Shown one piece after another: positions 28,997 to 30,109 of a stretch of 64,000 bases of DNA (position 1 is the first letter of the stretch; each line of letters begins with the position of its first letter). The notes below the pieces were generated by a model. The model was not told the DNA's origin and did no database searches. It saw only the letters and a program-made list of their open reading frames with translations. This DNA is from Deltaproteobacteria bacterium. Its GTDB lineage: Bacteria; Myxococcota_A; Polyangia; Haliangiales; JADYYK01. The stretch covers positions 7,943-71,942 of the forward strand of contig JADYYK010000245.1 of assembly GCA_020853705.1 (NCBI GenBank), in the 5' to 3' direction. A program made the position numbers and the translations under genes.

Positions 28997-29545
28997 ATGC
29001 GTCCGCTACCGCCGATCGAGGTGCCCTGGGGGCTGAAGCCGCTGGAGTCGGCGCGCACCGGGGTCGAGCGCTTGCCGCGGGGGCGGCGGCGCTTCTGGAT
29101 CGAGCATGACGTCGTGCGGGGCGTGACCCCGGCGATGCTGGTGTGGTGGTTCCAGAACCTCGAGGGCGAGATCGAGGTCGCGGGGCAGCGCCACCAGCGC
29201 TATCGCGTGTGGCATCCACGCGACCATCACTCGATCGCGTACGTGCGGCGGCGACCGGATGGGGGGATCGGGCCGGGGGCGCAGCTCAGGATCCGGGAGT
29301 TCTTCGCGGCGCGGCCAGAGAACAAGGTCGACATCCTGGCCACCATCGAGCGGCTGGACGAGGGGGGCTTCGTGCACCGCGAGAGCATCCTCGGCGTCGA
29401 GGTCGGGCGCATGAGCTACCGGTTCGAGGCGGTCGCGGGCGGGACCCTGTACCAGAACGAGCTGGTCATCGGGAGCCCCGGTGTCCTCGGGCCGGCCATG
29501 AACCCGGTGAGCTGGGCGCTCGGGTCCGTCAGCACCAGGTGGTAG
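28997..29545 (+). CDS. hypothetical protein
   Basis: 182-aa ORF with protein-like composition and no recognised motif. Its 3' end overlaps an antisense transposase remnant. Confidence 0.45.
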   Translation: MRPLPPIEVPWGLKPLESARTGVERLPRGRRRFWIEHDVVRGVTPAMLVWWFQNLEGEIEVAGQRHQRYRVWHPRDHHSIAYVRRRPDGGIGPGAQLRIREFFAARPENKVDILATIERLDEGGFVHRESILGVEVGRMSYRFEAVAGGTLYQNELVIGSPGVLGPAMNPVSWALGSVSTRW

Positions 29546-29700
29546 TGGTTCGAGAGGAAGCAGTAGGCGTGGAGCTGAATCCCGTAGAGCGCCGCCGCGC
29601 GCGCCAGGCAGTAGGCCAGTATCTCGTTGGTGGTGCGCGATGGCCGCAGCAGGAACTGGCGTTGTGTGCAGCGCCTGGTGACGAGGTAGGTCGAGCCGGG
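29416..29700 (-). mobile_element. IS200/IS605-like (HuH, Y1 / REP-associated tyrosine transposase-like) transposase remnant, truncated
   Basis: Within minus ORF 29416..29931, the segment YLVTRRCTQRQFLLRPSRTTNEILAYCLARAAALYGIQLHAYCFLSNHYHLVL has the His-hydrophobic-His (HYH) motif and the upstream T-R-R context of Y1 transposases. No catalytic-Tyr helix follows before the stop. Local GC is lower than the flanks. Confidence 0.5.
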
Positions 29701-29859
29701 GAGGACTTGCCGGGGATAGGACACATCGCCGAAGAAGGCACTCCTCGTGCCGGACACTTGAAGCAGCGAATCCGAGGGCTTCTCTCGTCCGGGTAATCCA
29801 GGGAGCGTCCGCTCCGCCGGACAAGCTGCGGACGGCCGGACGCGAGTGCTCGACATCCT

Positions 29860-30063
29860 CACGAACCTGGGTCGGGTCCGGCCAGGGTCGGGTCCGGTCG
29901 GTCCGCACGAACCTGGGTCGGGTCCGGTCAACGAGATCGCACGAACCTGGGTCGGGTCCGGTCGGTCCGGTCAGGGGGCGCGACGGTCACGAACCTGGGT
30001 CGGGTCCGGTCCGGGGACCCGACCATACAAGCGGAGCGGACCCGGCGAACCTGGGTCGGGTCC
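29860..30063. repeat. cluster of five direct copies of a 22-nt repeat, cacgaacctgggtcgggtccgg, with 12-36 nt spacers
   Basis: Copies lie at 29860-29881, 29906-29927, 29940-29961, 29988-30009 and 30046-30063 (partial). The spacers contain partial repeat pieces (gggtcgggtccgg, ggtccgg). Confidence 0.85.
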
Positions 30064-30067
30064 ACCC

Positions 30068-30109
30068 GAGCACGAGCACGAGCACGAGCACGAGCACGAG
30101 CACGAGCAC
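30068..30109. repeat. (GAGCAC)7 hexanucleotide microsatellite
   Basis: Read directly from the sequence. It abuts the 22-nt repeat cluster and lies 3 nt downstream of the stop of the minus-strand lipoprotein gene. Confidence 0.9.

Follow-up and report, generated by a model that had tools for sequence, protein, structure and literature searches.

Y1 transposons of the IS200/IS605 type end in same-strand hairpins rather than in inverted repeats, as in the complexes PDB 2VJV and 2XM3, while the HUH Rep genes of rolling-circle plasmids and of geminivirus and circovirus origins stand beside iteron arrays, which are direct short copies with little or no palindromic character. To our knowledge, nearly all characterised systems that pair repetitive extragenic palindromes (REPs) with a REP-associated tyrosine transposase (RAYT) come from Gammaproteobacteria, their REPs being hairpins that carry a GTAG head. 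We analysed a 64,000-nucleotide stretch of DNA (the window, at its full length) from a Deltaproteobacteria bacterium (GenBank assembly GCA_020853705.1, contig JADYYK010000245.1), in which a RayT-like gene fragment lies beside an array of short direct repeats. The layout that defines RAYT/REP systems places the gene between cognate repeats that are inverted and often in clusters (Nunvar 2010, PMC2817692), and a clear association with REPINs was found for RAYT groups 2 and 3 alone (Bertels 2017, PMC5581495).

A RayT-like unit has probably decayed here to its left end, which keeps the cognate array and was joined by a deletion to a convergent DAPG-hydrolase-like gene. The truncation, the junction and the conserved arrangement of gene and motif in relatives can be read directly from sequence alignments. 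Like the RAYTs that accompany REPs and bacterial interspersed mosaic elements (BIMEs; E. coli YafM, TnpA_REP, PDB 4ER8), the intact relatives encode a Y1 HUH fold with an HxH motif and a tyrosine in a Y..NP helix, find their best profile match in NF047646 and their best structural match in 4ER8, and are flanked by short inverted cognate repeats that are often clustered. Unlike in REP/RAYT systems, the unit is a 15-nt motif with neither a significant stem-loop nor a GT(A/G)G head, the arrays on each side of the gene are direct, and the protein, at about 298 residues, is longer than RAYTs (about 150-165) and carries an additional domain at its C-terminus. The window copy differs further in being truncated and in lacking its right flank; only the upstream array is left, because the downstream side was deleted. 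The HUH/Tyr single-domain nuclease core is shared with the TnpA proteins of IS200/IS605 (Y1_Tnp; IS608, ISDra2), but the relatives are flanked by inverted arrays of a non-hairpin motif and have no same-strand subterminal hairpin ends; no tnpB-like neighbour is found in the gene lists of their loci. The direct short copies beside an HUH gene recall Rep iterons, from which the system differs in that no origin hairpin bearing a nick site was seen, that the fold is that of a Y1 transposase/RAYT and not of a Rep, and that a chromosomal element carries inverted arrays on both sides as well as gene-less clusters.

The truncated gene, its junction and its array

A minus-strand open reading frame (ORF) of the window, 29416-29931, carries ...YLVTRRCTQRQFLL...HAYCFLSNHYHLVL and had been read in the original prediction as a Y1/HUH transposase copy that stops without its catalytic-tyrosine helix. 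This reading was borne out. The fragment is 80% identical to the protein of a relative, L025 (loci and proteins of relatives are cited by L and P numbers), over amino acids 1-76 only (tblastn), and family homology ends at 29497, 12 residues past HYHLVL. The ORF itself is real, but its predicted extent is not that of the gene: the family protein begins at the GTG at 29724 (VSYPRQVLPG...), the ORF before this codon merely crosses the repeats, and its final 27 codons read the neighbouring gene in antisense. SNHYHLVL in the fragment aligns to the HxH motif of the family and of 4ER8. The catalytic-tyrosine helix (Y..NP..AGLV) and the C-terminal domain of about 150 residues are absent from the fragment and found nowhere else in the 64 kb; in intact relatives the catalytic residue corresponds to Y120 of P0073, in the motif AYxLANPVAAGLV. 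Since the HUH motif is kept while the catalytic tyrosine is gone, the fragment, judged by its residues, cannot cut DNA. On its own the remnant has no enzymatic activity, but an intact paralogue, should the genome have one, could still act on the array in trans.

The convergent plus-strand ORF, 28997-29545, matches Pfam DAPG_hydrolase (E=9e-6), shares 83% identity with the 212-residue P0209 in amino acids 1-175, and has lost the near-invariant C-terminal motif GRAWLxHNIEEVGxFExFLPALY of that family. A three-way DNA alignment revealed that the window tracks L033, which holds the P0209 gene, up to CATGAACCC (29497-29505), and that from CATGAAC on it tracks the reverse complement of the L025 RayT-like gene. 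The missing pieces of the two genes are found nowhere else in the window. The identical fusion is present in an environmental contig (L035) that is 99% identical to the window, and is therefore not peculiar to this assembly. On the alignments, one deletion removed the 3' ends of both genes and joined them tail-to-tail, and the shared stretch at the junction would be the expected trace of a microhomology-mediated deletion between convergent genes. Both overlapping genes are broken, and the hydrolase is probably inactive. The antisense overlap of the original prediction exists, as each ORF continues beyond the junction along the opposite strand of the other gene until it meets a stop; given that both genes are truncated at the same junction, the question of which of them functions does not arise.

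The array on the other side of the fragment is built from the 22-mer CACGAACCTGGGTCGGGTCCGG, of which there are four exact plus-strand copies where shuffles expect none. Five direct copies had been predicted; the fifth is a variant that keeps the inner 17-18 nt and is changed at four outer positions. Start-to-start distances are irregular (46, 34, 48 and 56), and inspection confirmed that the spacers hold partial repeat pieces, e.g. GGTCGGGTCC. Inside the 22-mer lies the 15-nt core CCCGACCCAGGTTCG (gene strand), exact in all five copies, against 0.44 matches in the window by chance. The hairpin listed in Table 1 is the sole clear local hairpin of the array. The leader between array and gene has small hairpins at 29807-29822 (GTCCG..CGGAC) and 29737-29751 (GGCAC GAGGA GTGCC), which recur in close relatives in the alignment with the L025 and L030 leaders. 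A CRISPR-like array was considered and dropped, for the 12-36 nt spacers are irregular and contain repeat pieces, and a search of Rfam gave nothing but a chance microRNA match (E=0.9).

Table 1. Features at the locus and further hexamer arrays, in window positions
Feature	Position	Strand	Remarks
DAPG-hydrolase-like gene, truncated	28997..29505	+	about 170 of about 212 codons homologous; mechanical ORF goes on to 29545
Non-homologous read-through tail of the mechanical ORF	29416..29496	-	antisense of the DAPG-hydrolase-like gene; outside the RayT-like gene
Deletion junction	29497..29505		microhomology CATGAAC(CC), 7-9 bp, common to both parent genes
RayT-like (Y1/HUH) fragment, codons 1-76 of about 298	29497..29724	-	GTG start 29722-29724; HUH motif HYH kept
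Leader, 135 nt, proximal repeat to start codon	29725..29859	-	aligned with L025 and L030
Motif copy 1, proximal	29860..29881	-	137 nt from start codon; gene strand CCGGA-CCCGACCCAGGTTCG-TG
Motif copy 2	29906..29927	-	
Motif copy 3	29940..29961	-	
Motif copy 4	29988..30009	-	
Hairpin GGTCGGGTCC / GGACCCGACC	29998..30024		10-bp stem, 7-nt loop; copy 4 plus inverted partial copy 30015-30024
Motif copy 5, distal	30044..30065	-	15-nt core exact; outer 4 positions differ
(GAGCAC)7.8 = (CGAGCA)7.8 microsatellite	30067..30113		abuts the stop codon of gene 30113-30598
Further (GAGCAC)n arrays	2769-2832, 7844-7891, 52052-52101, 56252-56398	GAGCAC on +	

At the breakpoint, the gene-strand sequence CCGGGTTCATG (29497-29507) resembles, by eye, the 3' half of the motif, CCAGGTTCGTG, at 9 of 11 positions; GGGTTCATG (gene strand), likened to the motif's AGGTTCGTG, is also present in the hydrolase gene. 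The likeness may be a coincidence of the microhomology or a pseudo-site. From the likeness of GGGTTCATG and AGGTTCGTG, even the truncation of the window copy might have been enzyme-assisted.

The protein family and its motif

A protein search with the homologous part of the fragment gave 72 relatives, most of them short fragments, all of which share MxxPRQVLPGxTYLVTRRCTQRQFLLRPS...SNHxHxV.TDP; the relatives then continue with ..LPEF...FH.L.A..NA.LGRWENFW.....Y..NP.AAGLV. Full-length members have about 298 residues (L025 438-1334, L026 223-1134, L023 10726-9827), and one of these, used as the query, brought in more than 2,752 relatives (E<=1e-5). Many relatives are annotated as "REP element-mobilizing transposase RayT" or "transposase", and several are named from Myxococcota, including Anaeromyxobacter (A. 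dehalogenans ACL67450) and Polyangia. The window ORF matches the NCBIfam profile REP_Tyr_transpos (NF047646) with E=7.6e-6 and 25.9 bits, far under the 80-bit equivalog cutoff (residues 72-139 on profile positions 2-68 of 146), and the full-length relatives span the whole profile (positions 2-144 of 146, E=5e-17 to 2e-12). Pfam Y1_Tnp scores 25.1 bits on L025, which passes the cutoff of 23, and 15.5 on L026, and finds no match in L023; NCBIfam transpos_IS200 reaches E=0.016 only.

The alignment of the full-length relatives with E. coli TnpA_REP (4ER8) takes in both the HxH motif and the Y..NP helix. The best PDB match of an AlphaFold2 model of P0073 (pLDDT 86) is likewise 4ER8, with E=1.4e-7, TMt 0.72 and a root-mean-square deviation (rmsd) of 2.7 Å. 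The transposases of IS200, IS608 and ISDra2 also match in Foldseek but fit less well (E about 1e-5; for IS608 and ISDra2, TMt about 0.6-0.68 and rmsd about 6 Å). On the model, the family fold is nearer to TnpA_REP than to IS200-type TnpA, and the window fragment would hold only the first half of this fold. Residues about 150-299 of P0073 form an extra C-terminal domain without a PDB match in the structure search. A tblastn search of plasmids with a family protein gave only a 36%-identical Skermanella match, which is uninformative.

The motif accompanies the family. Eight independent loci were compared, half of which (4/8) were reached through the protein alone and not via the motif, and sequence downstream of the gene was at hand for six. 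All eight loci carry the core or a clade variant in the orientation of the gene, 100-370 nt before it, and 5/6 carry inverted copies 200-400 nt past the stop codon. Within an array, every unit points the same way. The fragment's best relative, P0001 (84% identity), is encoded on a metagenome contig (L001) that has the same core 155 nt upstream of its gene and once more directly after a truncated copy. A metagenome scan for paired cores, two cores 5-35 nt apart, gave eight contigs, among which L020 and L021 are one locus and L019 is a coding repeat. L025, L026 and L023 each have the cluster shortly before an intact family gene and in the orientation of that gene. The second paralogue of GCA_963853155.1 (L028-L030) has one upstream copy and four inverted downstream copies, with the variant CCCGACCAAGGTTCG. 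P0079 (L036/L037) is preceded by motif copies and followed by three to four inverted ones, and its spacers consist of GGTCGGGTCCGG pieces as in the window. The clade variant CCCGACCCAGAGTAA is found upstream of the genes of A. dehalogenans 2CP-1 (L031) and of P0186 (L038), with 2-4 inverted copies downstream.

Among 30 A-type copies, 14 of the 15 core positions carry 1.4-2 bits of information, the C/A position 0.8, and the positions just outside about 0.3; the flank consensus changes from locus to locus, and across loci the leaders are about 52% and the proteins 38-80% identical. As the core is kept while leaders, proteins and flanks diverge, the aligned copies indicate that the motif is more constrained than its surroundings and a genuine cognate repeat specific to the family. 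Close relatives differ in copy number (1-5) and spacing (20-80 nt), and in L025/L027 the repeat unit was duplicated together with 50-80 nt of flank; the arrays therefore probably grow and shrink by local duplication, or perhaps by reinsertion. At least one intergenic cluster (L020/L021), upstream of a secreted-protein gene, is without a family gene, and the same may hold for L024 and for the cluster at the contig end of L023.

Left ends were also duplicated in two distant lineages. In A. dehalogenans 2CP-1 (CP001359; L031 2446-3001), a 434-nt tandem duplicate with 96.8% identity, comprising motif, leader and about 107 codons, stands before the intact gene, and the GCA_963853155.1 lineage has a 370-nt tandem duplicate that is 100% identical (L001 1261-1630 vs L025 261-630). 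The duplicates comprise the motif, the leader and the first 62-107 codons, and the truncated copy is joined just 5' of a motif; at L027 2530-2620 such a duplicate has suffered a further internal deletion. The 8-Mb genome GCA_963853155.1 has at least two family copies, one internally deleted, whose proteins are 89% identical. The deleted one is its second paralogue (L030 3001-3777, 258 aa), with an internal N-terminal deletion: it starts MSCPPPYGIEAHAYCFLSNHYHLV and is without RQVLPG...TRRC...LARAAG. Given this deletion, decayed family copies seem common.

Some isolated matches to the motif stand apart. In a Myxococcota metagenome-assembled genome (JAYRMX010000061.1; L015 4468-4485), a single intergenic GGACCCGACCCAGGTTCG is followed by a GC-rich hairpin, GGCTCCGGCGGACTCCGCCGGAGCC, with no family gene within the 600 nt read. 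Two candidates were rejected: the cluster at L019 2420-2484 is a coding EPEPGS tandem linker repeat of a PDZ-type protein, and the copy at L014 3910-3927 is a match within a histidine-kinase coding sequence (DPTQVR). Such chance matches in coding sequence mean that motif-only searches give false positives.

The relatives suggest what an intact unit would look like. On its left would stand 1-5 direct copies of CCCGACC(C/A)AGGTTCG (gene strand) and then a leader of 100-180 nt; in the middle a gene of about 298 codons for an N-terminal RAYT-fold HUH/Tyr nuclease with the C-terminal domain of about 150 residues; and on its right a stretch of about 200-230 nt and then 2-4 inverted motif copies. The window keeps only the left array with its five copies, the leader and codons 1-76, the rest having been taken by the deletion at 7-9 bp of microhomology. 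The array would be the recognition repeat of the family protein, equivalent in function to the REP/BIME clusters that flank RAYT genes. Given that the motif lacks the hairpin read by RAYT and IS200-type enzymes, the C-terminal domain may share in its recognition.

Substrate, operator or insertion sequence

Several observations weigh against reading the locus as the remnant of a RayT-like unit with a cognate array. Folded with their spacers, the window units are no more stable than shuffled sequence (z = +0.66, +1.49, +0.56, -0.62, -0.68), and neither the 15-nt core nor its vicinity has a GT(A/G)G (or CGTC) head, unlike the characterised RAYT substrates. The window has no intact paralogue and no further motif copy, and the intact relative L027 is without a downstream array. 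The full-length relatives score 47-62 bits against the 80-bit RAYT cutoff of NCBIfam, and so lie outside the curated equivalog, though it is the nearest. That the family protein binds or cleaves the motif is purely what we infer.

Folding of the whole 388-nt region (z = -1.37) was no better than that of shuffles either, which together with the per-unit folding rules out REP-type hairpins, whereas an inverted motif pair in L023 does fold (z = -6.4). By definition, the units are not REPs. The original prediction had named a missing Y1_Tnp match, or a 22-mer confined to this locus, as grounds to give up a REP/RAYT-like remnant, and had proposed that the 22-mer be checked for hairpins. Pfam Y1_Tnp (PF01797) is not significant on the window ORF (E=0.16, 12.6 bits, cutoff 23); within the window the 22-mer occurs only here; and the units form no significant hairpin. 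The 18-mer GGACCCGACCCAGGTTCG, searched in 185,579 species-representative genomes (the source genome not among them), gave 17 single matches, one per record and in diverse phyla, which is about the estimated chance number, with no multi-copy genome. On its own terms the prediction would have failed, and only the comparison with relatives, where the core brackets intact genes as direct copies upstream and inverted copies downstream, rescues it, so that it stands partly supported. A literature search, within the library that could be searched, returned nothing relevant on the motif strings, nor on RAYT/REP in Myxococcota or Anaeromyxobacter, and the repeat type seems not to have been described before.

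One alternative is that the arrays are operator or regulatory sites, for autoregulation of the RayT-like gene or for a host factor, and that the window holds an orphaned promoter region rather than a mobilisation substrate. The constant placement of the motif upstream of the gene, at a similar distance and on the gene strand, fits such a role, as do the units without a hairpin and the 13-nt imperfect dyad CGAnCCwGGnTCG within the core, which is typical of the sites of dimeric binders of double-stranded DNA; the extra C-terminal domain, whose fold has no PDB match, could be such a binder. However, an operator has no obvious role in the inverted arrays past the stop codon at 5/6 loci, clusters stand away from family genes (L020/L021, L024), and close relatives differ freely in copy number and spacing. 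A scan for sigma-70 promoters and intrinsic terminators found none. We regard regulatory sites as unlikely.

The arrays and the gene might also form an autonomous insertion sequence (IS) with multi-copy terminal inverted repeats, in which case the window would hold a dead IS copy and not part of a domesticated RAYT/REP-type system. The inverted arrays do bracket the gene as IS ends do, the 8-Mb genome has at least two copies with one internally deleted, many database relatives are fragments, genes for a DDE transposase and an AbiEii toxin are among the neighbours, and tandem partial 5' duplications stand beside intact copies in two lineages. Yet the proteins of the two copies in that genome share only 89% identity, the copies have different surroundings, and no near-identical ones were seen. 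Moreover, the hairpin ends of known Y1 transposons are missing, profile and fold are nearer to RAYT than to IS200 transposases, and gene-less motif clusters exist. An autonomous IS is in our judgement rather improbable. That the repeats arose by local slippage in a GGTCC/GGGTC-rich low-complexity stretch, beside a pseudogene by coincidence, is hardly credible: Tandem Repeats Finder detects periodicities of 5 nt (GGGTC) and 9 nt (GGTCGGGTCC) in the array, a hexamer microsatellite adjoins it and the 22-mer is nowhere else in the window, but the five matches exceed expectation and the exact core recurs beside homologous genes whose proteins and leaders have diverged, which excludes slippage.

Beyond the decayed left end in the window, we tentatively propose that a large Myxococcota-centred RayT-like subfamily of about 298 residues, with its C-terminal domain, works on arrays of a sequence-specific 15-nt non-hairpin motif, direct to the left of the gene and inverted to its right, unlike all described RAYTs. 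The left-end duplications and the gene-less clusters would then be its footprints, and the window would hold one decayed left end.

Neighbouring features and wider meaning

The hexamer array beside the repeats, (GAGCAC)7 in the original prediction, is present with 7.8 units but is no part of the element, since such arrays are dispersed in the window. Five (GAGCAC)n arrays, of about 8 to 24.5 copies, are all intergenic and in one orientation, and several abut stop codons or sit between convergent genes; one switches to GGGCAC and one mixes in GAGCCC. They are a dispersed, oriented intergenic microsatellite family. GC content in the window is very high, about 0.70-0.80 around the locus. The lower local GC predicted is visible as a mild dip (0.64-0.67 vs 0.72-0.78 in the flanks), but dips of equal depth at 30600-30900 and 32100-32500 mean that it carries no information, and low GC as a mark of foreign origin was dropped.

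Several neighbours were recorded in passing. The gene at 30113-30598 (minus strand) encodes a small protein whose N-terminus holds a hydrophobic stretch resembling a signal and whose Cys-rich C-terminus is weakly similar to Pacifastin_I (E=5e-6, just under the cutoff) and to a VWF-like module. The gene that follows downstream, 30720-33281 (plus strand, 853 aa), matches the Major Vault Protein shoulder domain (E=3.9e-27) and the Vault_3 repeat (E=4e-9), and by these matches its product is a bacterial MVP homologue. A 300-nt direct repeat (23008-23307 and 23854-24153; 86% identity, 846 nt apart) looks like an internal coding repeat. Between 27311-27533, within the aspartokinase-type gene 26876-28057, and the amino-acid-kinase-like segment 53371-53593, the identity of 75% suggests that the latter is a paralogue of that gene.

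To conclude, our analysis describes a locus that in itself is an ordinary pseudogene remnant and that points to an apparently undescribed variant of the RAYT/REP theme. What looks like an antisense gene pair is two pseudogenes, made by one deletion that was probably microhomology-mediated, and neither should be annotated as intact. Behind it stands a large and distant RayT-like family with the same layout of a gene between inverted repeats, but with non-hairpin 15-nt arrays and an extra domain. If the protein does act on the motif, the substrate range of Y1 HUH enzymes would be wider, and the defined motif together with its protein would give a handle on the domesticated, or semi-domesticated, transposases that shape high-GC genomes.

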